64,000 bases of DNA from an uncultured Acidobacteriota bacterium (GCA_963828465.1 CAWHEU010000022.1:32001-96000); one strand, 5' to 3'; positions 1 through 40,400 are shown, counted from the stretch's first letter. Numbers and translations: made by a program. Notes: generated by a model from the letters alone, not told the origin.

Positions 1-1
1 C

Positions 2-920
2 ATGAATCAGCCTTCGCCCGCACGTCTGCTCAGGGAGTGGAAGCGGGACTTGGCCGACGGTGGGGACGGAGTGGATCTCGATGTGTACGGCGTGACGTCA
101 TCGATGGTGTACTGGGCGGACGTCATGTATGCCGCCGCCACCGACGCCGGGGGCAGCCTCTCACGAGTCGATCGAGTACGAGGGCATCGAGTCGGGCGCC
201 CTCACCGAGGTCGACGAGTCGTACATCGCCGAAGCGAGCGGGGACGAGAAGGACTTCATCGAGTCGATGATCGCCAACTACGACCTCGACCATCCCGACG
301 TGCCGGCAGCCGAGGCCGCTCCGGACGCGGGGGCAGAGGCCAGGGTGGCGGCGGCGTCGGCGTTGGAGGCAATACCTCTGCCGTGGTTCGTCAAGCGGCC
401 GCTGATGCGGCTGCTGTTGCGTGACGTCCACCACTATCTCTTCAACACCAGTCATTCGCCTCGAACCGGGTCCAGCTACAAGGTCCGCGATGAGGTGAGG
501 AAGCGGTTCGGCGCCGACCTCGGGGCCGTCGACGGTGGGCCCCATGTCGTAGTTGCGCACAGCCTCGGCTCGGTGATCGCGTATGACTGTCTCAAACGGG
601 TTGCCGGCACCAAGAAAGTGGACCTGCTGATCACGATCGGCACGCCGCTCGGCATGTCCGAGGTCCAGCACAACTTGAAGCCAGAGTGGTCGAAGGACGA
701 CGGCTACCCCGGAGAACTGCCGCGCTGGGTGAACGTGGTCGATCGTCTCGACCCGGTTTGTGTGGCCGACCCGATCATCGCCAACGACTACATGCGGAAG
801 AAGGCAGGCGTGGTGGTCGACGAGGTCGTGTCCAACGGCGGGGTGATGCGCCATCCGTCCGGCAAGTACTTCCGACAGGCGGTCGTTCAGGATGCGGTGC
901 GCAATGGATTGGGTGTCTGA
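2..920 (+). CDS. alpha/beta-hydrolase (lipase-like), probably 5'-partial, frame break near 130
   Basis: N-terminus in frame +2 (MNQPSPARLLREWKRDL...MVYWADVMY), continuing in frame +3 (ORF 129..920). Nucleophile motif VVAHSLGSVIAYD, LITIGTPLG, WVNVVDRLDPV and a C-terminal His (MRHPSGKY). Confidence 0.8.
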
Positions 921-929
921 GGGAGCCGG

Positions 930-2495
930 ATGTCGTTCTTCGACTCGCCACTTGGTGAGCAGCTCCGCTCCAGCCTCGATGCGGGGAAACCAGAGGACAT
1001 CGCCGCCGCGGTAGGGGTGGTCAAGGGGAAGGTGTGGTCGGGGACAGTGCAGCCCGATCAGGTCGACGAGGTCCTCGCAGAACTGCAGCGACAACGACAG
1101 GTTCAGCACGTCATCGACATCGCCGATGCGGCCACCGCGGTCGGCTCGATCACGACGTCGGGCCGTCGCCGCTACTGCCAGATGCTGATCGAGTCGGGAG
1201 CCCTCCATGCCGGCGAGCTCGCCTGCGCAGAGCTTCTCGATCTGGCCGAGGATGCGAAGGAGCGGGGGGAGGCACTGGGGCTGCTCGGGCGGATCCGCAA
1301 GCAGCGTTACGTGACCAGCCGCCGGCCCGAGGATTTGATCGGCGCAATTGCCGCCTATCAGTTCGCATACGCGGGAGGCGGCGACCCGCTCTGGCATGGC
1401 ATCAATCTCCTCGCACTCACCACCCGGGCCCATCGTGACGGAATCCTCGTTCCCCAACCGGTCGACACGGACGCTCTGACACGCACGCTCCTCGACGTAG
1501 TCAGGCAGACGGCACCCGAGTTGCAAGAGATCTGGGAGCGCACCACCGAGGTCGAGGCCCTGGTCGCCCTGGGCGACAAGGCGTCGGTGGACGAAGCGGT
1601 GTCGGTGGCACAGAAACTCGCCAGCAGCAAGAGTGTCCGGCCGTTTGAGCTGGAGAGCCTTCGCCGTCAGCTGGCCGACATCTGGGAACTCGAGCCGCAT
1701 CACCCGGTGCTGGTGGCCATCGCAGCGCAGAAGCTCCAACTCGGGGCCAGGGCCCATGTCGAGCTGCCCGATTCCGCGGGCCAGTTGGAGAAGATCTTCG
1801 GGACGGCCCTGCCTGTGGGGTACAAGCACCTGATGAGGGGTCTCGAGTGCGCAGAATCGGTGGGAAAGATCACCGACGCATCCGAAGAGCCGTGGGGCAC
1901 GGGATTCCTCCTACGCGGGAATCTGATCCATCCCGACTTCGGCGATGGACTGGTGCTGGCTACCAACGCCCACGTCTGTAGTCCAGAGCCCGGAGTGGGC
2001 AAGCTGCTGCCGAGCGAGGCGAAGGCTGTCTTCGACGTGACCAAGTCGGTCGATGGGGAGCAACTCGTCCTCACCGGCTTCGAGTGCCTGTGGAGCTCAC
2101 CACCCTCGGTATGCGATGTCACCATCCTTCGCTTCACCGGACCCGAGCCGGCGCTCAAAGGCCAGCTCGACGTCGCCGCGTTGCCCCAGCCAGTGACGGA
2201 GGGCGCATATGTCTATGTCATCGGCCATCCGGCGGGGGGTGGGATCAAGTTTTCGATCAGGGGCAACGACCTTCTCGCCTATGACGCCGACATGTTCAAA
2301 GTCCACTACACCGCCCCCACCGAAGGGGGCAGCTCCGGGAGCCCGGTCTTCAACCAGGCATGGCAGCTGATGGCTGTTCATCACGCTGGAGATTCGAAGA
2401 TGCACCGACTGGACGACCCTTCCGCTACGTATCAGGCCAACGAGGGGATCACGATCAAGGGGATCAGAGAGGAGTACTCCAAGAATGGAAAATGA
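930..2495 (+). CDS. TPR/DUF4071 (MAP3K TRAF-binding-like) domain fused to a trypsin-like serine protease
   Basis: Helical N-terminal region with EALGLLGRIRKQRY / AIAAYQFAY / WHGINLLAL. Catalytic triad motifs ATNAHV, DVTILRF and TEGGSSGSPVFN, plus VHHAG. Confidence 0.88.
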   Translation: MSFFDSPLGEQLRSSLDAGKPEDIAAAVGVVKGKVWSGTVQPDQVDEVLAELQRQRQVQHVIDIADAATAVGSITTSGRRRYCQMLIESGALHAGELACAELLDLAEDAKERGEALGLLGRIRKQRYVTSRRPEDLIGAIAAYQFAYAGGGDPLWHGINLLALTTRAHRDGILVPQPVDTDALTRTLLDVVRQTAPELQEIWERTTEVEALVALGDKASVDEAVSVAQKLASSKSVRPFELESLRRQLADIWELEPHHPVLVAIAAQKLQLGARAHVELPDSAGQLEKIFGTALPVGYKHLMRGLECAESVGKITDASEEPWGTGFLLRGNLIHPDFGDGLVLATNAHVCSPEPGVGKLLPSEAKAVFDVTKSVDGEQLVLTGFECLWSSPPSVCDVTILRFTGPEPALKGQLDVAALPQPVTEGAYVYVIGHPAGGGIKFSIRGNDLLAYDADMFKVHYTAPTEGGSSGSPVFNQAWQLMAVHHAGDSKMHRLDDPSATYQANEGITIKGIREEYSKNGK

Positions 2496-3297
2496 CGCAA
2501 TCCCTCCGGAGTTCCTGGAGCCCGAGGGCGACGCCGAGCGCCAGGATCCCGACCTCGTCTTCGAGACGACGTCAGCGACACTACGGGGGCTGTGGAATGA
2601 CTGGATGTGCAAACGAGGTGACGGGACTTTCGTCGACGTCGAATTCTTCGGCCGCCGGATCGGCGGAGTGCCGACCCCGGCGGTCGACGCCTATCGGGCG
2701 CTCGAGGTAGCCCTGCGCTCCGCCGGTTACAAGCCAGATTCGCGGTGGGCGTACAACTGCAGGCTCATCGAGGGGACGGACAAGCCCTCGCTGCACTCGG
2801 CCGGGATCGCAGTTGACATCGACCCGGACGAGAACCCGTTCTCGAAGGGTGACCCCTTCGCCGGGAAGATGGGTCCCGACCATGTCGCCGCGGCGCTGGC
2901 CATTCGCAACAGCGCCGGCGCCCGGGTGTGGTCCTGGGGCGGGCATTGGAACAAGCCCGATCGGATGCACTTCCAGCTCGACAGGGGGCCTGCGGCGGTG
3001 GATGTGGATTGGCGAACCGTCCCCGGTGGTGGCCCCGAAAGCGCCAGTTCGGGGTCAATGGACGTGAAGGAGGAAGAGATGGTTCTGTCCAAGAGCATGA
3101 AAGGCCCAGCAGTGGAGCGGTTCCAGCAGTGCCTGCTCGATTGGAATGCCAAGGCGCTGCCGAAGGACGGAGCCGATGGTGTTTTTGGGAGCGAGACCGT
3201 CGAATGGGTGGGGCGGTTCCAGGAGGCCCTTGGTCTGGAGAAGACCGGAGTGATCGACGGGGTGACCGCGGCCTTGCTGGTCGCCCACGGGAAGTAA
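2485..3297 (+). CDS. M15-family metallopeptidase with C-terminal peptidoglycan-binding domain
   Basis: Zn-binding motifs SLHSAGIAVDID and WGGHWNKPDRMHFQL. PG_binding_1-like tail (DGVFGSET...FQEALGLEKTGVIDGVT). Overlaps the upstream gene by 11 nt. Confidence 0.88.
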   Translation: MENDAIPPEFLEPEGDAERQDPDLVFETTSATLRGLWNDWMCKRGDGTFVDVEFFGRRIGGVPTPAVDAYRALEVALRSAGYKPDSRWAYNCRLIEGTDKPSLHSAGIAVDIDPDENPFSKGDPFAGKMGPDHVAAALAIRNSAGARVWSWGGHWNKPDRMHFQLDRGPAAVDVDWRTVPGGGPESASSGSMDVKEEEMVLSKSMKGPAVERFQQCLLDWNAKALPKDGADGVFGSETVEWVGRFQEALGLEKTGVIDGVTAALLVAHGK

Positions 3298-4291
3298 CAA
3301 GCCATCAAGGTCTTCCTGAGCTACCGGCGGGACGACACGGCGGGGCGCGCCGGAAGGCTCCACGACGCCCTGGCCTCGAGTTTCGGCACCCGCAACGTGT
3401 TCATGGACGTTTCCGCCATCGCGGTCGGCACCGACTTCGTCGACCAGGTGGAACGAGCGATCTCGACGAGCGACGCCTCGCTGGTGGTGATGGGGCCGAA
3501 TTGGCTCGGGGCCACTGACCCCGAAGGCCGTCGGCGGCTCGACGATCCCCAGGACCACGTGAGGTCTGAGGTGCGCTCCGCGCTGGCCTCACCCAACCCG
3601 GTGGTTCCGGTGCTGGTCGGGGATGCATCGTTGCCGACCGAGGACCAACTGCCTGACGATCTGAAAGCCCTGGCGCGCCGACAAGCCGTGGAATTGCGGG
3701 ACGAGACATGGTCTGAAGATGTCGAGATGCTGGTCCGGCGTCTCGAAGGCAAGGAGACGGTCCGGGAACCCCGCCGCTGGATTCTGCTGGCCATTGGCTT
3801 GATACTCCTGGGTGGCGTCGGCGCCGCTATCTGGATGGCTCAGGCAGGCGGCGAGGATGAGTTGACCCAATGCTCGGTGCCGGACGAGACATGGACCACG
3901 ATCGACGTGGAACCCGGCGCCACGGACGTCGAACAATTGGAGCGGGATCGGGCACTCCGCTACACGGTGGTGAGTACGGATTTCAGGGATGAACCCGGGG
4001 ACGAGTGGTACGTCGTGCTCCATGTGAGGCTGGAGAACGAGTCCACGGACGTGGCGGGAAACGACGACCACACCGGGTACGGACCGTCGATCTTCGACGC
4101 CCTGCACGTCGATGAGATCTCGGTCGGGGGCCCTTACTGCTTTGGCGAGAACAGTGGTGACAGCGATCTCGCCCCGGGGGAGGCGGCCAACGCACGGGTT
4201 GGATTCCTCTCCGTACCTGGACCCCACCGAGGCAAGTCTGATGCTCGAGACCGATGGGCCCCTCTTTATCGAGATCACCCCGGGCGCGTGA
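3298..4291 (+). CDS. TIR-domain membrane protein (TIR-TM-extracytoplasmic domain); start codon not visible, frame break near 4215
   Basis: IKVFLSYRRDDTAGRAGRLHDAL...VFMDV...DHVRSEVRSAL (catalytic-position Glu present). TM segment WILLAIGLILLGGVGAAIW. Alternative-frame tail LDPTEASLMLETDGPLFIEITPGA ends at TGA 4289-4291, overlapping the next ATG. Confidence 0.8.
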
Positions 4292-4821
4292 TGCCGACGG
4301 TCCTGTTCTCGGGCCACATGGTCGATGCACCAGACCGGCCGTCTCCACGCTTCCCACCCGAGCGTGTTCCCCTGGTGCGGCGGGCGATCGCGGAAGCCGT
4401 CTGGCTCATCGATGACACCGACGCGGAGGCGATCTCGGGACTCGCCTGCGGGGGCGATCTCCTCTTCGCCGAGGAATGGCTGAAGACCGGGCGGCCCTTG
4501 CACGCCTATCTGCCACGTGAAGAGGCGGATTTTCTCGACGAGTCGGTTCGTTTTGCCGGCTCGGAGTGGGTGGACTCGTTCCGTGAAGTGACCGCTGATC
4601 CGAACCTGGTCCTGATCGGTCCGGACCAAGAGATGCTTGGTTTGAACGAACCGCACACCGCGAACAACCTCCGCATGCTCGAAGCTGCGTTGCTGCGGCC
4701 CGGCGCCCTCAACGGTCTGTTCCTTTGGGACGGCAAGGGAGGCGACGGTCCGGGAGGCACCGAGCACCTGGCCTCTGAGGTGGTCGAGCAGGGCGGGAGT
4801 GTCACCGTTCTCCGTCCGTAG
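4291..4821 (+). CDS. SLOG-superfamily (YpsA-like) predicted nucleotide-binding protein
   Basis: MPTVLFSGHMVDAPDRPSPRFP, ISGLACGGDLLFAE and LFLWDGKGGDGPGGTEH motifs. Starts at a TGATG overlap, so its fusion to TIR in the ORF track is probably an indel artefact. Confidence 0.7.
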   Translation: MPTVLFSGHMVDAPDRPSPRFPPERVPLVRRAIAEAVWLIDDTDAEAISGLACGGDLLFAEEWLKTGRPLHAYLPREEADFLDESVRFAGSEWVDSFREVTADPNLVLIGPDQEMLGLNEPHTANNLRMLEAALLRPGALNGLFLWDGKGGDGPGGTEHLASEVVEQGGSVTVLRP

Positions 4822-10192: not shown

Positions 10193-11777
10193 CTAGTTCT
10201 CGCGTCGGGTGGAGAGAGCTTTTTCCGTCAGGGCGAACACCTTGACCGGTCTCTGTACACCCTTCATCACCAGGTCTTCGACCGGAACCCCATCGACCCG
10301 GTCCTGTACCGCTGCCATGGTCCGCTCAGAGACCAGGACCTGACGCGGCTCGGCAGCCGTGGCAAGTCGAGCCGCCACGTTCACGTGGTTTCCCACCACC
10401 GTGTAGTCGGTCCTCGTCGACGAACCGATGTTGCCCACCGTGACATATCCGGTGCTGATCCCGACGCCGACGGAGAGCTCCTCCTCAGAACGCATCCACG
10501 TGGCCCGCAGCTCCTCCACCTTGGCCAACATCTCGAATGCGGTAGCCACGGCCCGTTCGGCATGATCCTCGAACGGGATGGGATCACCGAAGAAAGCAAG
10601 CACTCCGTCCCCCAGGTACTTGTCCAGCGTGCCCCCGTTGGAGAAAACGATGTCGGTCATGGCGCTGAAGTACTCGTTCAGGGCATCGACGAGCTCCTCT
10701 GGCTCCATTCGCTCCGCGATCTGTGTGAAACCCCGGATGTCCGAGTAGAGGATCGTCAGATTGCGTCGGACCGAGGCGAAGGCCACCGGCTCGTCCCCGG
10801 CGAGTATCGCGTCCGCCACTTGCGGAGAGACGTATCGCCTCAGCTGCTCGGTCCGCTGCAGCTGGGTGACCTGTTCTTCGATGGTCTGCTCCAGATTGGC
10901 ATTGAGCTGGCTCAATCCCTCGTACAAGGTGGAGAGCTGCCTGCTCGTCCGGTTCAGGTTGACCGTCAGCCTCCCGAACTCGTCACGGTTGGGGACTTCT
11001 ACTTCCTGGCCGAAGTCGCCGTCGGCGATCCTTCCCAGTGCCAGATCGATCTTTCGCACCGGGCGCACCAGCGACCACGACAGGATGGCTCCCATCGCCA
11101 GAGCGGTGAGCAGGCTGACCCCGGCGAACGCGGCAACAGTCACCGTGAGGAAGCGGCGATTCCCCCGGAAGTTCTCGAGCTCGGACGCAATGTCTTCCCT
11201 CCAGCGAGCCGATCATCAGGTTGAGATCGTCTTCCAGCTCATGTGAGATCTCGTGCTCGGCCGAGATGTGAACATCGGAGGCTCGGGTCATGTCGCCGGC
11301 CTCGTAGAAAGCCAAGACTTCTTCAGCTGCCTCGGCGTACCGGAGGTCGGTTGCGTCGATTCGGTCGACGATGGCGACCAGCTCTTCGTCTGCCACATCT
11401 CTGATCGCCTGCATGTCGTTCGTGAAGTTCTCTTTGGCCTGGGCGATCTTGTCGTTCCACGAGTCGACCTGGGTGATCAGGGCCATAGCCCGGTAATGGC
11501 TCTGCGCTGTCACTGCATAGATGCCCTGCTGGGCGAGCTCCAGCTGATCTTGGAGCTCGATCACCTGGTCCATCTGCCGGTTCATCGCGTTGATCACGAC
11601 GATGCTGAAGACCCCCATGGCAAGAAGGAGCAGCGCACTCAACAGGAAGCCGGCGAGCAGCTTGGTGTGGATCGTCGCCGGCGCACGCGCCACCATGTCG
11701 ATGAGCGGGCGCACCCAACGGACGGGGAGTGGATCTGGATTTGGTTCCGGCGCGCCCTGATTGACCGCGTCTGTCAT
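10193..11777 (-). CDS. membrane adenylate cyclase (TM-sensor-TM-HAMP-cyclase); frame break near 11195
   Basis: Joins ORFs 10983..11777 and 10193..11143. HAMP (VPNRDEFGRL), ILYSDIRGFT, DKYLGDG, YTVVGNHVNVAARL. Confidence 0.88.
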
Positions 11778-12363: not shown

Positions 12364-13563
12364 CGACGTTCCGCCCGGAAGATCGTCACCGGGTCGGCGA
12401 TACCCTTCAGCTCGAATTCACCGATCTCGGTGAGCCTGAAAGCCGTCCCCCGAGACGATCCCCACCACCGGCTCACCGACGTACACCTCGGCTGCGTCAG
12501 CCTGGGAAGCGATCCGGGCCGCGAGATTGACGGTCCGCCCGAAGTAGTCACCTTCGTCGTAGAGCATTGGGCCGGCATTGACCCCGATATGGGTGTCGGG
12601 GAGCCCGCGGCTGGGTGCGCTGTCGACCATCTCCAGGGATGCCATCACGGCATCGTCGGGATCGCGGAACTGGAGGAACACGCCGTCGCCCAGCAACTTG
12701 ATCACGTTGCCCCGATAATCGGCGGCCACCTCGGTCGCCAGCTGAGCAAAGGTGAGGGCGACCTCTGCCGCCACATCGTCACCGGATTCCTCGGTCAGTT
12801 CCGTGAAGCCGCTGAGATCGGCAAACACCGCGGTCTCCAACTGGTGCGGCTGGCGTTGCCGAACACCGGCCTGCTCGAGGGCGGTCTCGACGTGCCCGAA
12901 CTGATGCTCGGTGGAGAATGTCTCCGAGTGTCGACGGAACAGCCAGCTCAACAGGTCCTCGCCCGAGCGGCCAACCCGGAGGCCGACTTCACGCAGTGCC
13001 GCCTCGTACGCGTCATTGTCGTTGAGTCCTCTTCGCCGAAACTGTTCCTCGACTGTCTGATGGAAGTAATGGGGCAGGTACTGGGCAACGCGACGCGTGC
13101 TGTCTCCCCAGACCCGCGCCATCCGGATCACGTCCCGTTCATCCAGACCCGCGGCGAAGAGGATCCGGACCTCCCGCAGGGCTTCGAGGTCCTCTTGGCG
13201 GACGAACTCGTCCGCCTCGGGCCGGGGCAAGCCAAAGGCCATGTAGATGCTGTCGAGCGTGGCAAATGGGATCCCGATCGCTTCGGCCTCTTCGGCAAAG
13301 GTGACATCCGACCGAGGGAATCGCCGGCCCGCGCTCTCGAGGTAGCCGAGCGACAGATGACCTGATGCCAGCGCAGTGGCCAGCGACTCCTCCTCGATTC
13401 CCATCTCATCGAGCTGACGGACCACCCGCACCTGCATGACGTCCCGACGCTCGAACGCGCCGTCCTCGGATTGAAGGATTCCCAGGTCTACGAGCCTCCT
13501 GATGTGCGCAGGGCTCGTGCCGGACCGATCGGCGAGCTCCTCTTCGGAGAGGCGGTCGGCCAT
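12360..13563 (-). CDS. adenylate cyclase with N-terminal regulatory domain (Rv2212-like); frame break near 12437
   Basis: VFADLSGFT, IKLLGDGV, DYFGRTVNLAARI. The C-terminus FELKGIADPVTIF lies in ORF 12360..12578. Confidence 0.88.
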
Positions 13564-16282: not shown

Positions 16283-19200
16283 GTGCTGCCTTCCGGTCTC
16301 GTCACCTTCGTCCTGACCGACATCGAGGGTTCGACACGACTCTTCCGCGAGCTCGGTGATGAGTACCCCAGACTGCTGGCAGACCATTACGAGCTGCTCC
16401 GCGCCGCGGTGACCGGCCATGGAGGCGCTGAGGTCGGGACCGAGGGCGACTCGCTGCTGATCGCATTTCCTGATGCGGCCGAGGCGGTCGCCGCTTGCCT
16501 CGAAGGTCAACTCGCACTGTCCGCCCATGTCTGGCCCCTCGGTGTAAAAGTCCAGGTGCGGATGGGAGTGCACACGGGAGAGGCGACACCGGTTGATGGC
16601 AACTACGTAGCCCTTCCGCTTCATCAAGTTGCCCGCATCTCTGCCGGAGCCCACGGTGGCCAGATCCTGGTCTCTCAGACCACTGCCACCAACATCGAAG
16701 GGAGGCTCCCGCCAGGCACACACCTGGCCGCCCTCGGGTCTTTCCAACTGCGAGGCTTCGCTACTCCGGAGCCCTTGTATCAGCTGCGGCACCCTGACCT
16801 CCAGGACGATTTTCCGCCGCTGCGCGCCATCGGGGTCCTTGCCCACAACCTGCCCTTCCGCCGCGCCAGCTTCGTCGGACGGGCCCAGGATCGGGCGACG
16901 CTGGCCGGGATGCTCGGCACGACGGGCCTGGTCACGGTCGTTGGCCCTGGTGGCGTCGGGAAGACACGGCTCGCCCTCCAGGTGGCCTTCGACGTGCTCG
17001 ACGAGTTCGACGACGGAGTCTGGCTGGTCGAGCTGGCACCCTTAGCCGATCCTGTCTCTGTGCCCAGGGCAGTCGCCTCTGCCATGGGCATTGCCGAGGT
17101 TCCCGGCCAGAGCACTGAAGAGGCTCTGACTTCGGCTCTTGGGGGCAAGGCTGCCCTGCTCGTCCTGGACAACTGCGAACACCTCCTCGACGCCGTCGCC
17201 GGCCTCGCCCAGATGCTTTCAGAGCGCTGCCCCAACCTGGTGATTCTCTCCACGAGCAGAGAGCCGCTCGACATCGACGGGGAGGTTGTCTGGCGGGTAG
17301 AGCCACTTCTCACCCTCGACCCCGATCAGACGGTCGGCATCGCCGAGCTGAAGGCGTCGGACGCCGTGCAGCTGTTCACCGAAAGAGCCGCCTCGGTTCG
17401 ACCCGGATTCGAGCTCACCGAGGACAACGCCGGCGATGTCGCGAGGATCGTCTTTCATCTGAGCGGCATGCCGCTGGCGATCGAGTTGGCCGCAGCCGCC
17501 CTGGCCGATCGGTCGTTGAGCGGTGTGCTCAGCGGGCTCGAAGACCGGTTCTCGCTGTTGGTCCGGGGACGGCGGACCGCCCCCACCCGTCATCAGACGC
17601 TTCGCGCCGCGATCGAGTGGAGCCTCGACCTGTTGGAGCCATCCGAGCGACTCCTGTTCGACCGGCTTTCGGTATTCGCCGGCAGCGGGACCAATGCTGC
17701 CGCCGGTGAGGTCTGCGCCGGTGGCGCAGTGGAGGGCAGCGAAGTCTCCGAGATCATGGGTCGTCTGGTCAGGGCATCGCTGGTCTCGATCGAGTCGGAA
17801 TCACCCGATCGTTGGACCATGCTCGAGTCGATTCGCGAATTGGGTGTGCTGGAGCTGGCCGAGTCGGGTGGAACGGAAGAGTTCTCCCGTCGACACCGGA
17901 CCTGGGCTGTAGGGCGCGTCGAGGCGGTCGAGGATCGAATCGGCCGAAAAGGGCAGGAGGCCGTCTTGGCCGAGCTGGCCGACGAACGCGACAACATCCG
18001 GCGGGCCATCGAAAACGCGCTCTCGGCCCACGACACGGAGATCGGGTTGCGGATATGCACCGCCATGACCCGCTATTGGACGTCGCACGGAGACTGGACC
18101 GAGGGATCAGAGCAGCTCGGCAACGTGCTGGCTCTGAGCGGGGGCGACCCGGGACTTCGTGGTCGTGCGCTGGTCGCTCTGGGCAGCCTCCTTCAACTCA
18201 GGGGGGAGCTCGAGGAGGCCGACAAGCGGTTTGGGGAGGCAAGAGAGTTGGCCACCGCTACGGGCGACGACGTCAACCTGGCTCGTGCTCTTTTGTATGC
18301 GGGTTATGTCGCATTCCGACACTCCCACCTATCGGAGGCCCAGGGTCTTTGGGAGGAGGCTCTAGCCCGCGCTCGCAGCGGCGGAGACCAGCGCGTGGAG
18401 GCCAGTGTCCTCAGAAGTCTCGCCATCGTCGCCGGCACCGAAGGGCGCCAGGACCTCGCAGGCGAACTGTTGGACCAGGCCATCGGGTTGGCCCAAGCTT
18501 CAGGAGACGACCAGCTGCTCCGCCTCCTGCTCGGCTCCTCGGCCGAGATGAACATCTGGCTGGGTCGTTATCAGGTGGCAGAAAGGGCCTACGGAGACGC
18601 TCTATCCCTTGCCGCAGAGATCGGCGATTTCTCGGCCCGCCCACTTTTGCTCGCTGAGTTGGGCTGGGTGGCGATCCTGCGTGGGGATCCACTCACAGCG
18701 CAGCGCCTCTCCATCGAAGCGGTCGAGTTCGCCGAAGACCTGGGAACACCCAGGGTGCTCACCCATGCCCTTCGTCTGGGCGGAGAGGCCATGATGCGTC
18801 TCGGAGACCTGGCCGCCGCGTCCGAGACTCTCGACCGTGCCCTCGCCGTCGCCGAGAGCCTCAACGCTCCCGCCGAGTTGGCCGGCGTGCGCTGCTCACA
18901 GGCGTGCCTGGCCTTGGAGCTCCAGGATTGGGAACTGGCTCGAGTCCACGCCGGAGAGGCGATCGAGACTTCGGGCTTGGCCCACACGATGCGCCGGACC
19001 ACCCCGCAGTGGGTTTTGGGGATGGTCAGCCTGCTCGAAGGCGACCTCGGGTCCGCGGGACGACAGTTCCAGGAGGCCCTCGCCGCGGCGGTAGAGCGGG
19101 GCGCACTCCGTCACGAGGCCACCTTCAGCTTGGGTCTGGCCGCGGTAAACACTGCACAGGGGCGAACCACCGAGGCGGCGAGCCTCTGCAGGCGCGCCCT

Positions 19201-19504
19201 CGACCTGTGGCAAAGCCTCGGCGACCCGCTTGGCGTGGTCGAGTGCCTGGTCGTGTTGGCGCAGCTCGCGGCGACAACAGAGCCCGAAGGTGCTGCGGAG
19301 TTGCTTGATGCGGCCGGGTCGCTTCGGGATCATGCCGGGGCCAAGGCGACACCTCGTGAAGCGGCGCAGGTGGCAGCCATATCAGGCTCGCTTGGGCAGG
19401 TTCTCGCCTCCGAGGGCCTCGAGGCGGCAGCGAAGATGGGTCAAGCAGATGCGGTCGCCGCAGCCGGACGGATCATCTCGATGATCGAGACCGGAAATCA
19501 ATAG
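16283..19504 (+). CDS. adenylate/guanylate cyclase + STAND ATPase + TPR
   Basis: VLTDIEGST, EGDS, GPGGVGKT, LVLDNCEH, long TPR-like tail. Confidence 0.92.
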   Translation: MLPSGLVTFVLTDIEGSTRLFRELGDEYPRLLADHYELLRAAVTGHGGAEVGTEGDSLLIAFPDAAEAVAACLEGQLALSAHVWPLGVKVQVRMGVHTGEATPVDGNYVALPLHQVARISAGAHGGQILVSQTTATNIEGRLPPGTHLAALGSFQLRGFATPEPLYQLRHPDLQDDFPPLRAIGVLAHNLPFRRASFVGRAQDRATLAGMLGTTGLVTVVGPGGVGKTRLALQVAFDVLDEFDDGVWLVELAPLADPVSVPRAVASAMGIAEVPGQSTEEALTSALGGKAALLVLDNCEHLLDAVAGLAQMLSERCPNLVILSTSREPLDIDGEVVWRVEPLLTLDPDQTVGIAELKASDAVQLFTERAASVRPGFELTEDNAGDVARIVFHLSGMPLAIELAAAALADRSLSGVLSGLEDRFSLLVRGRRTAPTRHQTLRAAIEWSLDLLEPSERLLFDRLSVFAGSGTNAAAGEVCAGGAVEGSEVSEIMGRLVRASLVSIESESPDRWTMLESIRELGVLELAESGGTEEFSRRHRTWAVGRVEAVEDRIGRKGQEAVLAELADERDNIRRAIENALSAHDTEIGLRICTAMTRYWTSHGDWTEGSEQLGNVLALSGGDPGLRGRALVALGSLLQLRGELEEADKRFGEARELATATGDDVNLARALLYAGYVAFRHSHLSEAQGLWEEALARARSGGDQRVEASVLRSLAIVAGTEGRQDLAGELLDQAIGLAQASGDDQLLRLLLGSSAEMNIWLGRYQVAERAYGDALSLAAEIGDFSARPLLLAELGWVAILRGDPLTAQRLSIEAVEFAEDLGTPRVLTHALRLGGEAMMRLGDLAAASETLDRALAVAESLNAPAELAGVRCSQACLALELQDWELARVHAGEAIETSGLAHTMRRTTPQWVLGMVSLLEGDLGSAGRQFQEALAAAVERGALRHEATFSLGLAAVNTAQGRTTEAASLCRRALDLWQSLGDPLGVVECLVVLAQLAATTEPEGAAELLDAAGSLRDHAGAKATPREAAQVAAISGSLGQVLASEGLEAAAKMGQADAVAAAGRIISMIETGNQ

Positions 19505-21352: not shown

Positions 21353-21435
21353 GTCCCCGCTGGAAGCCGGAGATGTAGCTTCCGTCGGTGTCGAGGACTC
21401 GTCTGTGGGAGCGTCTCAGTGGTGTGGGCGACGAG

Positions 21436-23058
21436 ATGGTCTCTTCCATCCGTCACCTTGTCGAGGCGCTCCGTGTCAGGGACATGCGGCGGGTGCTCGC
21501 TGCGTACCTCGGCTTCAGCGTGGCCGAGATGGCGAACTTCATCGCCATCCTCATCTACGCCTACGAAGTGGGTGGCGCCTCGGCTCTCGGCCTGGTCGCG
21601 TTCCTCCAGCTCGCCCCGGCCACCGTGTTCGCCCCCGTTGGCGCCACCCTCGGAGACCGCTACCGCCGCGAGCTCATGCTCATCGTGGCGTACGCGGTCT
21701 TTGCCGCCTCCTCGGCCTCGATGGCGATCGCGCTCTACGCCGATTGGCCAGTGGGCGTGATCTACTTCCTCGCCGCGGTCAACGGCACGGTTCTGACCCT
21801 GGTGCGACCGTTTCACGAGTCCCTCCTCCCCGCCCTCGCCCGGAGCACGGAGCAACTGACGGCGGGGTATGTCGCCGGCGGAACAATCGAAAACCTGGGC
21901 TGGATCGCCGGGCCTCTTCTGGCCGGCGTCACCGCGGCTGCCTGGGGAATAGGCACCACCTTCGTCATCACGACGGCGCTTCTACTCGTCGGCACGATCT
22001 TGGTCTGGAGTGTTCAGACCACCACGGCAGCCGACCGTGGCACCGGCCAGAGCGCAATTCAGATGACATTGGAGGGGTTCGGCGCCTTCCGCGGCCCCCG
22101 CCCCAGGGTCATCCTCCTCTCCTCGACCAGCGTCTTCTTCCTAGCCGGTGTTCTCGAGGTCGCCACCATCGTCCTCGCCTTCGAAGTGTTCGCCACGGAA
22201 GATTCCGGGGCTGCCTGGCTCAATGCCGCTATCGGTATTGGTGCCGCAGCAGGCTCGGTCCTTGCGATCGTTCTGATCGGAAAGAGACACCTCGCTCCAT
22301 CGATGCGGCGGGGACTGCTACTCATCGCTGTATCCGTGTCTTTGATCCCGATCTTTGGATCGCAGGCAGTCGCCCTTGTCGCTTTGGCCGTCATGGGCGC
22401 CGGCTGGACCTTCGTCGATGTGTCGGGTCGGATCATGCTGCAACGGGTCATCCCGCTCGGCGGTCTCTCCCGGGCGTTTGGGGTCGTGGAAGGAACCTCC
22501 ACCGCCGCCGAGGCGTTCGGCTCGGTAGCGGGGGCGATCCTCATCGGCTGGTTGGGCGTCGGGTGGACGCTGGTCGTCGCCAGTCTGCTCATCATCCTTG
22601 TCGTCCTGGTCAACCGCGGGGCGCTCCAGGAGGCGGACGTTGGGGTGATAGTCCCCATCGAGCACCTCCACTTGTTGAGGTCGACGCCGATGTTCGCCGC
22701 ATTAGGCCCGGCCGAGTTGGAGCGCCTGGCATTGACCATCGATGAGGAATCGGTCGGCCCGGGCTCTGCCGTCTGTGTGCAGGGGGAGCCGGGGGAACAC
22801 TTCTACTTCGTGGAGCGGGGGACGGCCCGGGTCGTACGTGACGGCACAGATGTCGCAACCCTGGCGACCGGGGACTTCTTCGGGGAGATTGCCTTGTTGC
22901 GGGACATCCCCCGAACCGCCACCGTCGAGGCCGTGAGCGACCTGGATCTATTGGTCCTCGAAAGGGGGCCGTTCCTAGACGCGATCAAGTCGTCGGCGTG
23001 CCAGATCGAAGCCGCCCAAGCGGTATCCCAGACTCGCATGGACGAGTTGGGAATGTGA
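21436..23058 (+). CDS. MFS transporter with C-terminal cNMP-binding domain
   Basis: About 12 TM segments, GATLGDRYRR motif, cNMP motif GDFFGEIALLRDIPRTATV. Start could be 21388. Confidence 0.9.
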   Translation: MVSSIRHLVEALRVRDMRRVLAAYLGFSVAEMANFIAILIYAYEVGGASALGLVAFLQLAPATVFAPVGATLGDRYRRELMLIVAYAVFAASSASMAIALYADWPVGVIYFLAAVNGTVLTLVRPFHESLLPALARSTEQLTAGYVAGGTIENLGWIAGPLLAGVTAAAWGIGTTFVITTALLLVGTILVWSVQTTTAADRGTGQSAIQMTLEGFGAFRGPRPRVILLSSTSVFFLAGVLEVATIVLAFEVFATEDSGAAWLNAAIGIGAAAGSVLAIVLIGKRHLAPSMRRGLLLIAVSVSLIPIFGSQAVALVALAVMGAGWTFVDVSGRIMLQRVIPLGGLSRAFGVVEGTSTAAEAFGSVAGAILIGWLGVGWTLVVASLLIILVVLVNRGALQEADVGVIVPIEHLHLLRSTPMFAALGPAELERLALTIDEESVGPGSAVCVQGEPGEHFYFVERGTARVVRDGTDVATLATGDFFGEIALLRDIPRTATVEAVSDLDLLVLERGPFLDAIKSSACQIEAAQAVSQTRMDELGM

Positions 23059-33204: not shown

Positions 33205-36200
33205 TCAGGATGTTGTCGCCAGTACCTCCCGCGCCGCGACCAGGTCGTGTTCCTCGAGGCCTTCGGTGAATGTGGCGTAGAGCGATGCCAGCTCCTCGCT
33301 GCCGTCGGGGGTCTTGCCCATCTCCCGATGGAGGTCGACCAGCCGGGTCAGTGCCTGCAACTCGACGAGGTGGAACCCTCCCGCCCCTCCTCCTAGAGCC
33401 GCGATCAGATAGGCCTGTTCGGCGGCCTCCAGATCGGGGTCGGGGAATGTCCTCAGAATGTCACCTCTGACGATGAGGAACTCAGGATTGGTCAAGACGT
33501 CGGGCCCGCCGGTCGTGACGGCCTCATCGATCAGCTCCAGGGCTCGCTCGGAAAGACCCGCGATGTTGTGCACCAAAGCTCGCAGACGGAGCAGATCGGG
33601 CCAGAACACCGGGGGCGCGGTCAGCCCGTGGTACAGCTCGATTCCCTTCTCGGTCATTGTGAGACCGGTCTCGGGGTCCCCCAGATAGGACGTCGCCACC
33701 CCATCGCAGACGGTGGAGAGGGTTCGCCATACCGGATAGTCGTTCTGCTCGGATACCACGTCCAGCTCCCTGGCCCGATCCCGCGCCTCCTCGTACCGCC
33801 CGCGATAGAGGGCGAGAAGACCGTTGTGATGGAGTCCATAGGCGATGCTGTAGGGGTGGCCGATCTGCCGTGCCACATCGAGGGCGTCCTCGACGCGGTC
33901 TACGGCCTGCTCCAACTTCCCGCACTGCCAGAGGAGGATTCCCGAGGCGGTTCGGGCCACCACACCGGTGTTGGGGCCGAGCCGAAATCGGCCAGAGTCA
34001 TGGACCTGAGGGTCGTGAAGCTCGATAGCCCGGTCGAGGCTGGGGAGCCCCACCTCGAGGTTCCCGGTGAAGGCGGTTGCGGCCCCGTAGACATAGTGGC
34101 CCTCGATCAGCATCGAGTCGTCGCCGGCCTGCTCACCGAGCTCGAGCAGCTGCTGGCCGAGTTCGGCGACCGCGGCGAATTGAGCGATACCCATGTAGTA
34201 GGTAGCCAGGGCACGGAGCACCGGAAACCGTTGGGTCGGAGTCCCGACCGTCTCCGAGGCCTCCATGGCTTTCTTGTACGCCGCCTCGGTTTCTGGTCCG
34301 TAGCCGCGGACGGCCATCATCGCCCGCGCCAGACTCATCCGGAGTGCCAGCTGCTCGGCGGCGACCTTCGGTGACGGCTCGACCCCATCCAGCATTTCGA
34401 TCCCGTCGTTGGCCAATTCGATTGCGGCCCGGTACCAACCCCTCGACTCGTGGAGAGCCCACATCCCCTCGATCATCCCGAATATCTGCTCGACTCCGCC
34501 TTGGGCGATCCAGTAGTCCCAGGCGGTCCTCAGGTTGCCCAACTCCCGCTCCAGATCGTCCAGCGCTGCCTGCCGGTCCGCAGCGTGCAGGCGCCCGCCT
34601 ATGCCGTCGACCAACCTGCAGAAATAGTCGGCGTGGGAGTGCCGGCCCGCCGCTTCCCGGTCCGGCGACTCGGCCAGCTTCGACTCGGCGAATTCCTTGA
34701 TCATGAGCAGCATCGAGAACCGCTGGGTCAGCCCCGTGTCTGCACGTCGCACAAGGCTCTTGTCCACCAGCGAGCCGAGAGTGTCGAGGGCGTCGACCCC
34801 ACCGAGGACTTCGGCGGCCACGGCCTCTAGCGCGCGAAGGTCGGTGGCGGAGAACACCGACAGCAGTTCGAAAACTTCACGCTCGTTCTGGTCGAGTAGC
34901 TCGTAGCTCCATCCGATCGCCCCCCAAAGGGTGCGTTGACGATCGGGCAAGTCTCGGCCACCCGCACCGAGGACGTCGAGCCGCTCCCGGAGCCGTTCCA
35001 ACAGATCCGACGGGGTGAACACGTTGAGCCGAGCCGCGGCTAGCTCGATTGCGAGCGGGAGCCCGTCGAGTCGGAGACAGATCTCGGCGATCGTGGAAGC
35101 GTTGTCATCCGTCACCGTGAACTCGGGGCGCACTGCCCGGGCTCGGTCGGCAAACAGAGCCACCGCCTCCGACTCGGCGATGACGGAGGCCTCGTCGTCA
35201 GGATGAGGGAGGCCGAGCGGGGGCACCGGGAACACCTTCTCCGCCCGGACCCGAAGTGTCTCCCGGCTGGTAACGAGGACCTTGATCCCTGGTGCGTGTT
35301 GGAGGAGCTCAGACAGCCCCACGGCGGCGGGTGCCACCTGTTCGAAGTTGTCGAGGACGAGGAGCATCCGGGAATCGCGCAGTCGGGTCTTCAGCACTTC
35401 GAGAGCATCGCTACCGCCCGACACAGGGATGGCGAGCGTCGCTGCGACCGCATCGAACACGTTGTCCGGTTCTCGTTCGGAGGAGAGATCGACGAAGAAG
35501 ACACCGTCCAGGTAGTGGTCCAACTCATCGGCGGCGACCTGGAGACCGATCCGTGTCTTGCCCGCACCGCCTGGGCCGGTGATAGTGAGCAGCCTTGTGG
35601 TCGGGGATTCCAGCATGAGGTGGATGGCCGCCAGCTCGTCCTCACGACCCAGGAACTCGGTGGCCTGCTGGGGGAGGTTGTTCGGTCTTCCGTCCAGGGT
35701 CCGTGGCGCCGGGAATTCGGAACGGAGGGCGTCGTGGATCACCTGATAGAGATGCTCGGGCTCGGTGAGGTCCTTGAGCCGGTGGATCCCGAGATCTCGC
35801 AGCTCTACACCTGGCGGCAGATATCCGGACGCGGAAGACGTGCCAGAAACCAAGCACTTGGCCTCCGTGCCCGGCGGCCATGATCCGGGCGGCGCGGTTC
35901 ATCGCCGGCCCGAAGTAGTCGCCCTCACGGCTCTCGGTGTCTCCGCTGTGGATCCCCATTCGGACCCGGAGAGGGCCCGTCGGTCCCCACTGCTCCTCAT
36001 CCAGTGAGCGTTGGCTGTCGACGGCTGCGGAGACGCCATCCGAGACCGAGTCGAACATGGCGATCATTCCATCACCCGTGGTCTTCAACACCGAGCCCCC
36101 GGCTTGGGCTATCGCCTGGTTGAGTATCTGGTCGTGACGAGCGAGTGCGGCTGCCATCTCGTCGCCGTGTTCCTCCCAGAGACGTGTGCTTCCTTCGATG

Positions 36201-38744: not shown

Positions 38745-39287
38745 CTAGACGGGGGCTGGCACCGGCTCGGGCATCAGCTCGAGCAAGTGGGTGTTCAACT
38801 GATAGAACAGGGAGGTCGGCAGCGAGCCCTCGCCGAGACGCCGGTTGATCTCCTTGAGCAACCTCAGCCACCGGGCGAAAACGTCCGCGGGCGGCACCGC
38901 ATCCGCGGCTAGATCCCGGGCGAAATCGGATATCCGACGTCGAAGATCCTCGAGCTCTGGGTCGCTCGGCTGAGCAAAAGCGGTTGGACGGAGCGACGTG
39001 CTCGTCTGGCCCACACCGGCGGTGACCGGGCGAACTGGTGAGGCTTCGATGCCCAGCGCGGCGGCGAAGGCCTTCGAGTCGGTCACGTTGAGCACCATCT
39101 CCTCGCCGTCGACCCTGATGTGAAAACCATCTGCTTGGACGACGATGTCCAGTTGCTCGAGTGGCCAGTTCGCGACGGTTCGCTCACCGGCGGTCAAGGT
39201 CATCCGCTCGTTGAGAATGTCGACCTCCACACCGAGCGGAAGACGGGTATGGCCCGGCAGGCGGAGCCTGGCGTTGAACGACGACAA
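38745..39287 (-). CDS. hypothetical protein
   Basis: Open frame with coding-like composition, a beta-rich N-terminal domain and a helical C-terminus. TTG start after GGAGGG is assumed. Confidence 0.65.
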   Translation of the reverse strand: MSSFNARLRLPGHTRLPLGVEVDILNERMTLTAGERTVANWPLEQLDIVVQADGFHIRVDGEEMVLNVTDSKAFAAALGIEASPVRPVTAGVGQTSTSLRPTAFAQPSDPELEDLRRRISDFARDLAADAVPPADVFARWLRLLKEINRRLGEGSLPTSLFYQLNTHLLELMPEPVPAPV

Positions 39288-39440
39288 TTCATCCCTCCAC
39301 ATCGTCTCGGAGGGGCGGAGGCCCCAATCAGCTTGCCTCACGTAATCGCCCGGAGCGGGTGGATGGATACTCTTCGCAGCGAATTCCTAAGGATTTTGGC
39401 CCCAAGAGGCCATCAGACCGTCGAATACACTCGTCGGGTG

Positions 39441-40400
39441 ATGCCGCCCACTCGATCGCCGGAGATCGAGTCCGTGACGCGCAGGGTGCTGCTCGCCTTC
39501 GAGACGGGCGACATGGCTGCCATGGCCAACCTGGTTTCAGCGGATCCCAGTCTGCGTGTTCTCGGATTCGCAGTCGACGAATGGTGGGCCGGTCCAGAGG
39601 AGTTCCTCACCATCCGGGAAACGCAGATCGCTGAGATCCCCGCCCTTCACATCCAGATCGAACGGGTCGATGCCTTCGAAGATGGTGCCTTCGGGTGGGC
39701 GGCGATCGCCACGACGGTGATCACACCCGAGTTGAAGACACCTATGAAGCACGCCGCCGTGCTGAGACTCGAGGCCGGGGCGTGGAAGGTGATCCTCTGG
39801 ACCAACTCGGTTCCGGTGCCAAACATCCAGATCTTTGGCGTTGAGTTGACCACCACCCTCGACGACCTGGTCACCTCGGTTCTGGACGAGCACAGCCGGT
39901 CCTCCACGGCTCTCGAGGGCACCATGACCCTGGTGTTCACCGACATCGTCGACTCGACGAGCCTCGCCGAGACCCTCGGAGATACCGCCTGGGCCGAGCT
40001 GATCAGCCGGCACGAATCCACTATCAGGCAGGTGACCGCATCACAGGGCGGGACGGTGGTCAAGCTGCTCGGTGACGGCTCGATGCTTGCCTTCGAGTCG
40101 GCCCGCGCCGCAGTACGTGCGGCAGTGGACATTCAGCGGGCCTCGGCTAGTGGCCCGTTCGGGGTCCGAATCGGTGTCCACACCGGAGAGGTGATCCGCA
40201 CCGCCGACGATCTACTGGGTCTGACGGTCAACAAAGCGGCCCGGGTTGCTGCTGCCGCCGATTCCGGGAGCATCATGCTCTCCTCGACAACCAGGGACCT
40301 GGTCGGCTCACTGGAAGGGATCAGAATGGGCGAGCCGAGGATCGTGGCGCTGAAAGGTCTCTCGGACACCCACCAAATCGTCCCCATCGGGTGGGAATGA
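39441..40400 (+). CDS. SnoaL/NTF2-like domain + adenylate/guanylate cyclase
   Basis: N-terminal NTF2-like region (EWWAG...GAWKVI). VFTDIVDST, VKLLGDG, GLTVNKAARV. Confidence 0.9.
   Translation: MPPTRSPEIESVTRRVLLAFETGDMAAMANLVSADPSLRVLGFAVDEWWAGPEEFLTIRETQIAEIPALHIQIERVDAFEDGAFGWAAIATTVITPELKTPMKHAAVLRLEAGAWKVILWTNSVPVPNIQIFGVELTTTLDDLVTSVLDEHSRSSTALEGTMTLVFTDIVDSTSLAETLGDTAWAELISRHESTIRQVTASQGGTVVKLLGDGSMLAFESARAAVRAAVDIQRASASGPFGVRIGVHTGEVIRTADDLLGLTVNKAARVAAAADSGSIMLSSTTRDLVGSLEGIRMGEPRIVALKGLSDTHQIVPIGWE

Follow-up and report, generated by a model that had tools for sequence, protein, structure and literature searches.

We analysed a 64,000-nucleotide (nt) stretch of DNA from an uncultured Acidobacteriota bacterium (GCA_963828465.1 CAWHEU010000022.1:32001-96000), referred to below as the window, and on balance we believe that its positions 1-3297, together with sequence upstream of them, encode an effector module that is cytoplasmic and gated by a protease, like those of bacterial anti-phage or suicide systems. 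The module would consist of an alpha/beta-hydrolase, a trypsin-fold serine protease coupled to a TPR-S domain, and an M15 metallopeptidase that acts on the cell wall. It appears to vary a known type of protease-gated module, with a protease of the trypsin type and predicted cleavage sites that carry Glu. Domain content, the conserved pairing and fusion of the genes, the conservation of the predicted sites together with their predicted flexibility, and the intactness of the catalytic residues were computed directly. Five genes lie on one strand within window positions 1-5.7 kb, encoding the hydrolase, the TPR-S/protease, the M15 enzyme, a TIR membrane protein and a CN-hydrolase, in a region of ~65% G+C. 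They are tightly packed, with a gap of 9 nt between the hydrolase and protease genes and an overlap of 11 nt between the protease and M15 genes. The nearest genome loci (L001 and L002) are contigs of Acidimicrobiia metagenome-assembled genomes, with 97% identity in the protease.

To see how regularly the hydrolase and the protease occur together, we used 79 loci from a scan of species-representative genomes and counted, on the basis of tblastn, those in which the protease has a hydrolase homologue upstream, on its own strand and with its end at most 700 nt away. This pairing occurs in 51 of the 79 loci, spread over many phyla, and 2 further loci have the hydrolase elsewhere. Four of the 51 are fusions of hydrolase, TPR-S and protease in a single open reading frame (ORF; L043, L050, L053, and L068), and library representatives include five more proteins in which the hydrolase is joined to TPR-S and Trypsin_2 (P0324, P0330, P0334, P0346, and P0363). 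Pairing and fusion together argue strongly for a joint function of hydrolase and protease. The same counts bear on the idea that these genes are ordinary neighbours, i.e., an uncoupled housekeeping or scavenging cluster of an esterase, a protease and a wall peptidase whose shared motifs are coincidental. That idea draws on the [LF]E motif occurring at chance frequency in the window and on NCBIfam and PADLOC scans in which the hydrolase, the protease and the M15 enzyme all fell below the model cut-offs. We nevertheless consider it very improbable, given the pairing across phyla, the repeated fusions, predicted sites that are kept in 150-151 of 152 hydrolases inside a variable insert (discussed below), and the conflict-type genes nearby (TIR, NucA endonuclease, patatin, and PLD), which fit the setting of a conflict system. 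Some of these genes were seen in loci without the hydrolase: a patatin-like phospholipase lies near the protease in L044 (4553-5728) and L063, and a PLD-like protein in L011 (4567-6264) and L013, suggesting that effectors are interchangeable.

In the window, the hydrolase gene is not a single uninterrupted frame. A DNA alignment with loci L001-L005 places its first 29 nt beyond the 5' edge, and one surplus C at nt 157/158 relative to these loci puts part of the gene in frame 2 and the rest in frame 3. The orthologues in L001-L005 are uninterrupted and encode 315-323 amino acids (aa), that of L001 having 315. The shifted N-terminus is also found in the long-contig assemblies P0483 and P0484, while the short-read relatives, P0473 and L001-L005, are unbroken. 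We think that the surplus C is more likely an assembly error, which we suspect to be systematic, than the mark of a real pseudogene. The first-pass annotation of this DNA had placed the start of the hydrolase at position 129; the ATG there, which would open a protein beginning MPPPP, is out of frame, and the alignment with L001-L005 identifies it as an artefact.

To examine the hydrolase family, we compared 152 non-identical sequences with 28-93% identity to the L001 orthologue, whose numbering is used throughout. The match to Abhydrolase_6 reaches 24.8 bits, under the cut-off of 26.3, and a fold search found lipases and prolyl oligopeptidases to be nearest, all of them weak matches (best E 2.7e-3). 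The AlphaFold2 (AF2) model is confident overall, with a mean predicted local distance difference test score (pLDDT) of 88.4 and a predicted template modelling score of 0.89. The candidate catalytic residues are kept almost without exception (S197 in 152/152, D257 and D260 each in 151/152, H294 in 150/152), and they would form a triad with S197 as nucleophile, D257 or D260 as the acid and H294 as the His.

Between a conserved Y-W-A-D-V-x-Y block and a conserved L-P-W-F block lies a variable segment of 54-85 aa, and it is here that the predicted cleavage sites are found. The columns of this insert have an entropy of 2-3 bits, its mean pairwise identity is 27% versus 58% for the rest of the protein, and Asp and Glu make up 27% of it versus 13% elsewhere, giving a median net charge of -15. 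Two Glu residues stand out: E65 is present in 150 of the 152 sequences, preceded at the P2 position by His, Gln, Tyr, Asn or Phe and followed at P1' by Ser (122), Gly (17) or Ala (8), and E132 is present in 151, with Leu (106), Phe (37) or Tyr (5) at P2 and then Ala or Arg, Val or Ile, and Pro (consensus [LFY]-E-[AR]-[VI]-P). All other columns between Y53 and P135 are conserved in at most 135 of the 152 sequences. In the AF2 model, E65 sits within residues 61-67, where pLDDT falls below 50, and E132 closes a helix (122-132) downstream of a second weak stretch (111-114). Cuts after both residues would yield fragments of ~65, 67 and 183 residues. We judge it likely that the paired protease cuts the hydrolase at both Glu sites, and the hydrolase part of the protease-gated reading is well supported.

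Conserved Glu residues need not be scissile, and we considered that they may serve binding or folding. The Glu-bounded acidic segments would then be docking peptides for TPR-S or electrostatic shields, and the protease would act on phage or host proteins rather than gate its neighbours. Short acidic peptides are bound by TPR domains, and the presence of TPR-S on several effectors per locus (on TIR in L043 and on a 176-aa domain in L012 and L016) fits an adaptor role. The motif in the protease linker is conserved on both flanks, and within the insert of the hydrolase the helices at its centre (residues 83-102) are confidently modelled, as if part of the fold. What makes this alternative unlikely in our view is that E65 is near-invariant in a loop predicted to be disordered and surrounded by variable neighbours, as is typical of a linear motif, that Arg stands at the second site in some distant homologues, and that another protease-paired alpha/beta-hydrolase has been demonstrated to receive two cuts, one at either end of an internal fragment, according to the available part of its description (PMC12642450).

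The distant homologues allow a closer look at the second site, with the P1 residues of fusion proteins read off printed aligned segments. In the five hydrolases fused to TPR-S and Trypsin_2, the position just ahead of the conserved [AV]-L-P always holds Glu, and in three of the five fused to a subtilisin (Peptidase_S8) it holds Arg (P0462, P0459, and P0425). Because Arg takes its place in these proteins, Glu at site 2 is not demanded by the hydrolase fold, and the pattern points to a P1 identity that depends on the partner protease, though not cleanly. When 1.84 billion representatives were searched with the hydrolase profile, 4576 representative clusters matched at E <=0.001; among the best 150 of these, no member has Arg-Gly at both sites, and basic residues at site 2 are confined to distant members that are unassigned or fused to a subtilisin.

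The partner protein carries a TPR-S domain (PF20308) at residues 64-163 (48.0 bits, cut-off 27.6) and a Trypsin_2 domain at residues 323-483 (57.7 bits, cut-off 27.6), and its AF2 model has a mean pLDDT of 91.2. The central regulatory region of ASK1 was found as a fold match for TPR-S, and some homologues of the protease also match MAP3K_TRAF_bd. The family is large and spans several phyla, with 146 matches down to ~30% identity, and the catalytic residues H348, D396 and S469 are invariant in an alignment of 112 sequences. For the linker between the two domains and the S1 pocket, we counted residues in 113 sequences. The linker follows the consensus [LFY]-E-[KAR]-[IV]-[FL]-G, with E287 in 108, the preceding [LFY] in 110 and G291 in 112 of them, and the first four positions of this motif resemble site 2 of the hydrolase. 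The loop is modelled with low confidence, pLDDT being below 50 at residues 272-280 and the means of the 10-residue blocks being 47 and 55.

In and beside the S1 pocket, T464, S469 and H484 are each present in 113/113 sequences and G487 in 108/113. T464 and H484 correspond to Thr164 and His184 of V8 protease (chain 1qy6), residues 458-487 of the query mapping to 158-187 of that chain. The best sequence match among solved structures is SplB (E = 0.0024), with V8 at E = 0.3, and the top fold matches are FAM111A, Rv3671c and DegS, with V8, Esp and exfoliative toxin A at E ~3e-6 to 6.5e-6. In glutamyl endopeptidases, His213 and Ser/Thr190 are described as mandatory; those with Gly216 (V8, BIGEP, and Esp) employ the alpha-amino group of residue 1 in their S1 site, and self-processing of Glu-SGP takes place at Glu(-1)-Val1 (PMC5508998, available portion). 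SplB is likewise described as inactive when it carries just four extra N-terminal residues (PMC13398530, available portion). The pocket of the window protease allows either Glu or Gln, being necessary but not sufficient for Glu specificity, and the conserved Glu in the predicted substrates favours the former. Because this subfamily needs an exact N-terminus, a cut between E287 and K288 would be a reasonable activation step, and the free amino group that completes the S1 site would become available only after it. We regard self-cleavage at E287 as plausible and give it an even chance.

The case for the third gene is less direct. The M15 enzyme has a Peptidase_M15_4 domain at residues 97-165 (45.2 bits, cut-off 25) followed by PG_binding_1 at residues 207-265 (37.7 bits, cut-off 23), and H104, D111 and H162, which we take to be its metal ligands, are invariant in 65 sequences. 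Its family is small and narrow (>=55% identical), with 82 matches at E <=0.001, of which 77 were aligned with the query to give 78 sequences. Only two phage proteins match it, covering residues 62-164 and 65-164. The 27-residue N-terminal peptide has a median net charge of -9 and ends in E27, which is kept as [LFMY]-E in 68 of the 78 sequences (P2 being Leu in 46, Phe in 18, Met in 3 and Tyr in 3). The gene is found in four arrangements around the hydrolase-protease pair: downstream on the same strand in L001-L005, upstream and divergent in L006, upstream with a gap in L007, and downstream and convergent in L032 and L051. A complex prediction with the full-length protease and M15 residues 1-200 scored 0.00 against a mark of 0.32, which gave no answer and counts neither way. 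Removal of the peptide by the protease is plausible, and we put the chance that the M15 enzyme is a substrate a little short of even.

Other wall hydrolases occur at similar positions in related loci. Counting all three unrelated families, a wall hydrolase adjoins the protease in 26 of the 79 loci: M15 in 9, GH108 with PG_binding_3 in 13 and Amidase_2 in 4. The GH108 genes immediately precede the hydrolase gene in closely spaced arrays (with gaps of 18 and 6 nt in L024), and the Amidase_2 genes of L008 and L014 occupy the usual slot of the hydrolase directly upstream of the protease. Each family carries an additional terminal extension. In each of the 13 GH108 proteins, a tail of 24-31 residues with a net charge of 0 to -7, acidic in 12 of the 13, comes after the motif L-P-G-[FY]-E, which is replaced by L-V-T-L-E in one of them. 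Of 677 matches to phage GH108 proteins, the best 25 stop at residues 164-178 of 206, short of this tail. The four Amidase_2 proteins all have acidic C-terminal tails containing [LF]E. L-E motifs also occur in the N-terminal extension of all four NucA proteins encoded downstream of the protease, three of which are close relatives. Taken together, this is moderate evidence that the wall hydrolases belong to the system and bear removable acidic ends. A bolder interpretation, which we offer tentatively, is that one TPR-S-coupled, Glu-specific protease would read a portable pro-tag code, in which four or more unrelated families of effectors (alpha/beta-hydrolase, M15, GH108, and Amidase_2), and possibly NucA, would each have separately acquired an acidic segment with [LFY]-E at its border.

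A narrower account is that the protease gates the hydrolase only, the M15, GH108 and Amidase_2 proteins being separate effectors or phage-derived neighbours that are not cut, with acidic ends that keep the enzyme off the envelope or regulate export. The M15 gene is near the pair in just 9 of the 79 loci, and its N-terminal peptide is conserved over the full length, so that E27 is no more conserved than its neighbours. Moreover, the GH108 proteins are most closely related to phage endolysins (38-46% identity), and the Amidase_2 case consists of 4 sequences. Against this stand the recurrence of three unrelated wall-hydrolase families in tight same-strand arrays with the pair, the placement of Amidase_2 in the hydrolase slot, the persistence of M15 beside the pair through four arrangements, and an extra extension with [LFY]E, acidic in most members, in every one of the families. 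We see gating of the hydrolase alone as possible but doubtful.

Apart from the rarity of the M15 gene and the uniform conservation of its N-terminal peptide, a number of observations weigh against the protease-gated module. The hydrolase is frameshifted in the window sequence as given, and 26 of the 79 loci (2 of them at a contig edge) have no hydrolase homologue. No obvious signal peptide was seen by eye in the hydrolase, the protease or the M15 enzyme, so that a wall hydrolase would have no evident route to the wall. In a scan of 9 proteins against PADLOC-DB v2.0.0, only the protease was matched, and only weakly, to RT-Protease_XI over the protease domain (E = 3e-4). The linker P1 residue is Gln in 5 of the 113 family members and in 6 of the 79 loci, and the L-E-K-I-F-G motif, being conserved on both sides of its Glu, could be the structural start of the protease domain. 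We looked for co-variation of P1 between the linker and the hydrolase and found none, as L009 and L033 have Gln in the linker and still Glu in the hydrolase. Two of the five subtilisin fusions (P0461 and P0465) retain Glu, and P1 therefore changes only imperfectly with the class of protease.

Several of these points also qualify what the first-pass annotation had proposed. The motifs on which it drew (TEGGSSG, VHHAG, GQLEKIFG, SHE/S, ALE/AIPLP, and DLVFE/TTS, the slash marking the predicted cut) are all present where it had placed them. It had read matching [LF]E sites in the three proteins as the mark of a shared Glu-specific protease, and these sites are indeed kept across homologues. In the window itself, however, [LF]E occurs about as often as expected (1 observed versus 1.5 expected in the hydrolase, 6 versus 5.0 in the protease, and 4 versus 2.0 in the M15 enzyme), and site 1 of the hydrolase is better written as x-E-S, in line with its varied P2 residue. 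The signal thus lies in the conservation among homologues, none of it coming from the window alone. The check that it put forward, conservation of the motifs within otherwise variable linkers, is borne out by the counts for E65, E132, E287 and E27, except that the M15 segment is conserved throughout. Thr and His in the S1 pocket, which it took as the hallmark of glutamyl endopeptidases, are invariant in the family, but His213 is common to Gln-specific proteases as well (PMC5508998, available portion), and SplB, which has the same Thr and His as the query, prefers WELQ (PMC13398530, available portion).

Bringing these results together, we propose a mechanism in which a signal passing through the TPR-S sensor or adaptor would activate the protease, probably by a cut in its own linker after Glu287 (L-E/K-I-F-G) that frees a new N-terminus. 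The lipase-like hydrolase would be made as an inactive proenzyme, which the protease would cut after Glu65 and Glu132 to remove an acidic plug of ~67 residues. The protease probably also takes the 27-residue acidic peptide off the M15 enzyme after Glu27. Once freed, the lipase-like enzyme and the wall hydrolase would damage the envelope of the producing cell, and the former may open the membrane and so give the wall hydrolase, which has no evident signal peptide, access to the wall in the manner of phage lysis. The Glu specificity of the protease, each of the cleavage events and their order, the substrates of the hydrolase and the role in defence are what we infer from the comparative data. 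By analogy, the pairing of a membrane-damaging function with a signal-less wall hydrolase resembles the holin-endolysin cassettes of phages. Unlike in those, there is no holin, the membrane step would be enzymatic, and control would be exerted by proteolysis rather than by timing.

The closest precedent for such a module is a zymogen from Lysobacter capsici AZ78. The accessible sections of a preprint by Evans et al. (2025) report that LcHydrolase is cut by the caspase-like LcCaspase at Arg73 and Arg117 into fragments of 8.1, 4.7 and 19.8 kDa, that the Arg-Gly pair is conserved across 161 homologues, and that HHpred matches LcHydrolase to lipases and oligopeptidases (PMC12642450). As far as those sections allow a comparison, both systems place a predicted alpha/beta-hydrolase gene next to a sensor-linked protease, and in both two conserved sites border an internal fragment, a likeness of layout rather than one drawn from sequence comparison. 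Lipases and oligopeptidases are the nearest folds of both enzymes. The pieces are also of similar order, with an N-terminal piece of 8.1 kDa in LcHydrolase and ~65 aa here, a middle piece of 4.7 kDa and ~67 aa, respectively, and a C-terminal piece of ~20 kDa in both. The two differ in the partner, which is a caspase-like cysteine protease acting at Arg/Gly sites for LcHydrolase and a TPR-S-fused trypsin-fold serine protease with Glu as the predicted P1 here, and in P1', which is Gly in the LcHydrolase family and Ser, Gly or Ala at site 1 and Ala or Arg at site 2 in ours.

A second precedent involves trypsin-like proteases. In the portions available of two reports, Avs and other sensors are coupled to trypsin-like proteases that cut proenzymes of nucleases with the metallo-beta-lactamase (MBL) fold (PMC12642450, PMC12799240). 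There too, a sensor-tied trypsin-like protease cuts a neighbouring proenzyme twice and frees a toxic activity. Those systems differ from the present module in that the effector is a DNase, P1 is Ile and all three fragments are needed. Their sensor is a STAND NTPase, whereas the module here has TPR-S and no NTPase. Kaur et al. (2020) described predicted conflict systems that pair an alpha/beta-hydrolase with caspases and trypsin with Trypco1/2, and proposed a proteolytic cascade that releases NucA, no cleavage sites being given (PMC7159879, available portion). Our loci resemble these systems in that an effector and a peptidase are encoded together alongside TIR and other effector domains, and NucA follows the protease in L043 and L050 and is fused in L053. 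Our hydrolase is paired with a trypsin-fold protease and not with a caspase as in that study.

The protease itself shares with V8, BIGEP, Esp and the Spl proteases the His-Asp-Ser triad, the chymotrypsin fold, Thr190, His213 and Gly216, and the activity of those enzymes is described, in the parts of the literature available, as hanging on an exactly processed N-terminus. They are secreted and have short pro-peptides, whereas the window protease has no evident signal peptide and a 271-residue TPR-S part in front. In the literature searched, we found no paper on TPR-S or PF20308, the term TPR-S being absent from two papers by Kaur et al., and no account of a hydrolase module that combines TPR-S, a trypsin-type protease and Glu sites, although Fig. 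4A of PMC12642450 might include trypsin-paired examples. The same literature yielded no description of protease-gated pro-enzymes among wall hydrolases.

The coordinates of the features discussed, together with those of the two genes that follow the M15 enzyme, are given in Table 1.

Table 1. Features at the start of the window (positions in nt unless stated otherwise; the slash marks a predicted cleavage point).
Feature	Position	Strand	Remarks
Alpha/beta-hydrolase effector gene	2..920	+	Frame 2 at nt 2-157, frame 3 at nt 159-917, stop at 918-920; 5' end off window
Hydrolase site-1 Glu, S-H-E/S (predicted)	165..167	+	E65 of the L001 orthologue
Hydrolase acidic variable insert, predicted excised plug	168..368	+	Ends A-L-E/A-I-P-L-P; site-2 Glu at 366-368 is E132
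Hydrolase nucleophile Ser (candidate), A-H-S-L-G	561..563	+	S197
Hydrolase candidate acids D257/D260	741-743, 750-752	+	Conserved columns
Hydrolase candidate His H294	852-854	+	Conserved column
TPR-S domain and trypsin-fold serine protease, 521 aa	930..2495	+	Pfam TPR-S, Trypsin_2
Protease interdomain linker, residues 272-291, G-Q-L-E287/K-I-F-G (predicted self-cleavage site)	1743..1802	+	E287 at 1788-1790; motif residues 284-291, nt 1779-1802
Protease catalytic triad H348, D396, S469	1971-1973, 2115-2117, 2334-2336	+	Invariant columns
Protease TEGGSSG	Residues 464-470, nt 2319-2339	+	Includes T464 and S469
Protease VHHAG	Residues 483-487, nt 2376-2390	+	Includes H484 and G487
Protease S1-pocket equivalents T464 (190), H484 (213), G487 (216)	2319-2321, 2379-2381, 2388-2390	+	SplB and V8 alignments
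M15_4 metallopeptidase with PG_binding_1, 270 aa	2485..3297	+	Pfam
M15 acidic 27-residue N-terminal peptide, predicted pro-peptide, D-L-V-F-E27/T-T-S	2485..2565	+	E27 at 2563-2565
TIR, membrane span and middle domain gene	~3298-4291	+	TIR_2 32.7 bits
Separate 176-aa domain gene	4291-4821	+	Start M-P-T-V-L-F near 4291 in relatives

Downstream of the M15 gene, within 3298..4821, the window reads as one ORF of 474 aa, due to a single surplus base at ~4211-4212 relative to L001, L002 and L003. The relatives have two genes there, the first ending in I-E-I-T-P-G-x and the second encoding 176 aa. The first ATG, GTG or TTG of the ORF comes only after the codons for the initial strand of the TIR domain (V-F-L-S-Y-R-R; window 3298-3396), no common start codon was found between the M15 stop and this strand, and the TIR gene may start at a rare codon such as ATC at ~3304. 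At window 3730-3760, past the TIR domain and ahead of the membrane span, an L-E dipeptide (in R-R-L-E/G-K) that may be a further cut site is kept in the narrow sample of four close relatives (L001, L002, L003 and L005). The 176-aa domain (window 4291-4821) has no Pfam or NCBIfam match. In other phyla it is a C-terminal fusion on a second TPR-S protein near the protease (L012:4949-6949, L016:4514-6550, and L074:4725-6899). TPR-S is in fact joined to varied effector domains, including TIR (L043:3446-4729), this 176-aa domain (L012 and L016), the protease and a calcineurin-like phosphoesterase (P0330), and it may be a shared adaptor and not a sensor alone. On the other side, 5' of the hydrolase in L001-L005, lie a protein with TIR, Big_9 and TPR (L001:1741-3675) and then a 327-aa protein (L001:3722-4702) with no Pfam, PADLOC or NCBIfam match.

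The rest of the window contains further genes with signalling domains. Adenylate/guanylate cyclase domains are present in five proteins (10196-11143, 12421-13563, 16283-19501, 39120-40397, and 57845-61636), two of which also carry a fused NTPase domain (NB-ARC or AAA_16) and TPR. Two transporters have domains that bind cyclic nucleotide monophosphates (21388-23055 and 42022-44004), and a further NB-ARC protein is encoded at 33208-35853. A pair of LtrA-family paralogues lies on opposite strands (44033-45169 and 56713-57738).

Experimental proof of protease-gated death effectors in bacteria dates from 2025 only, and the locus described here would represent a large sister group of the module that combines a caspase with Arg sites in the hydrolase (PMC12642450, available portion), with a trypsin-fold partner and Glu sites in their place. 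The module yields exact cut sites that can be tested, predicts a self-processing step and points to cell-wall hydrolases as additional licensed effectors. If the pro-tag code is true, a membrane breaker and a wall hydrolase would be released together, as a proteolytic counterpart of the phage holin-endolysin pair that is encoded by the cell, and pro-enzyme wall hydrolases would add a new class to the protease-gated immune effectors. If confirmed, the module would provide a simple sequence rule for recognizing protease substrates in defence islands, as well as orthogonal pairs of proteases and pro-tags.

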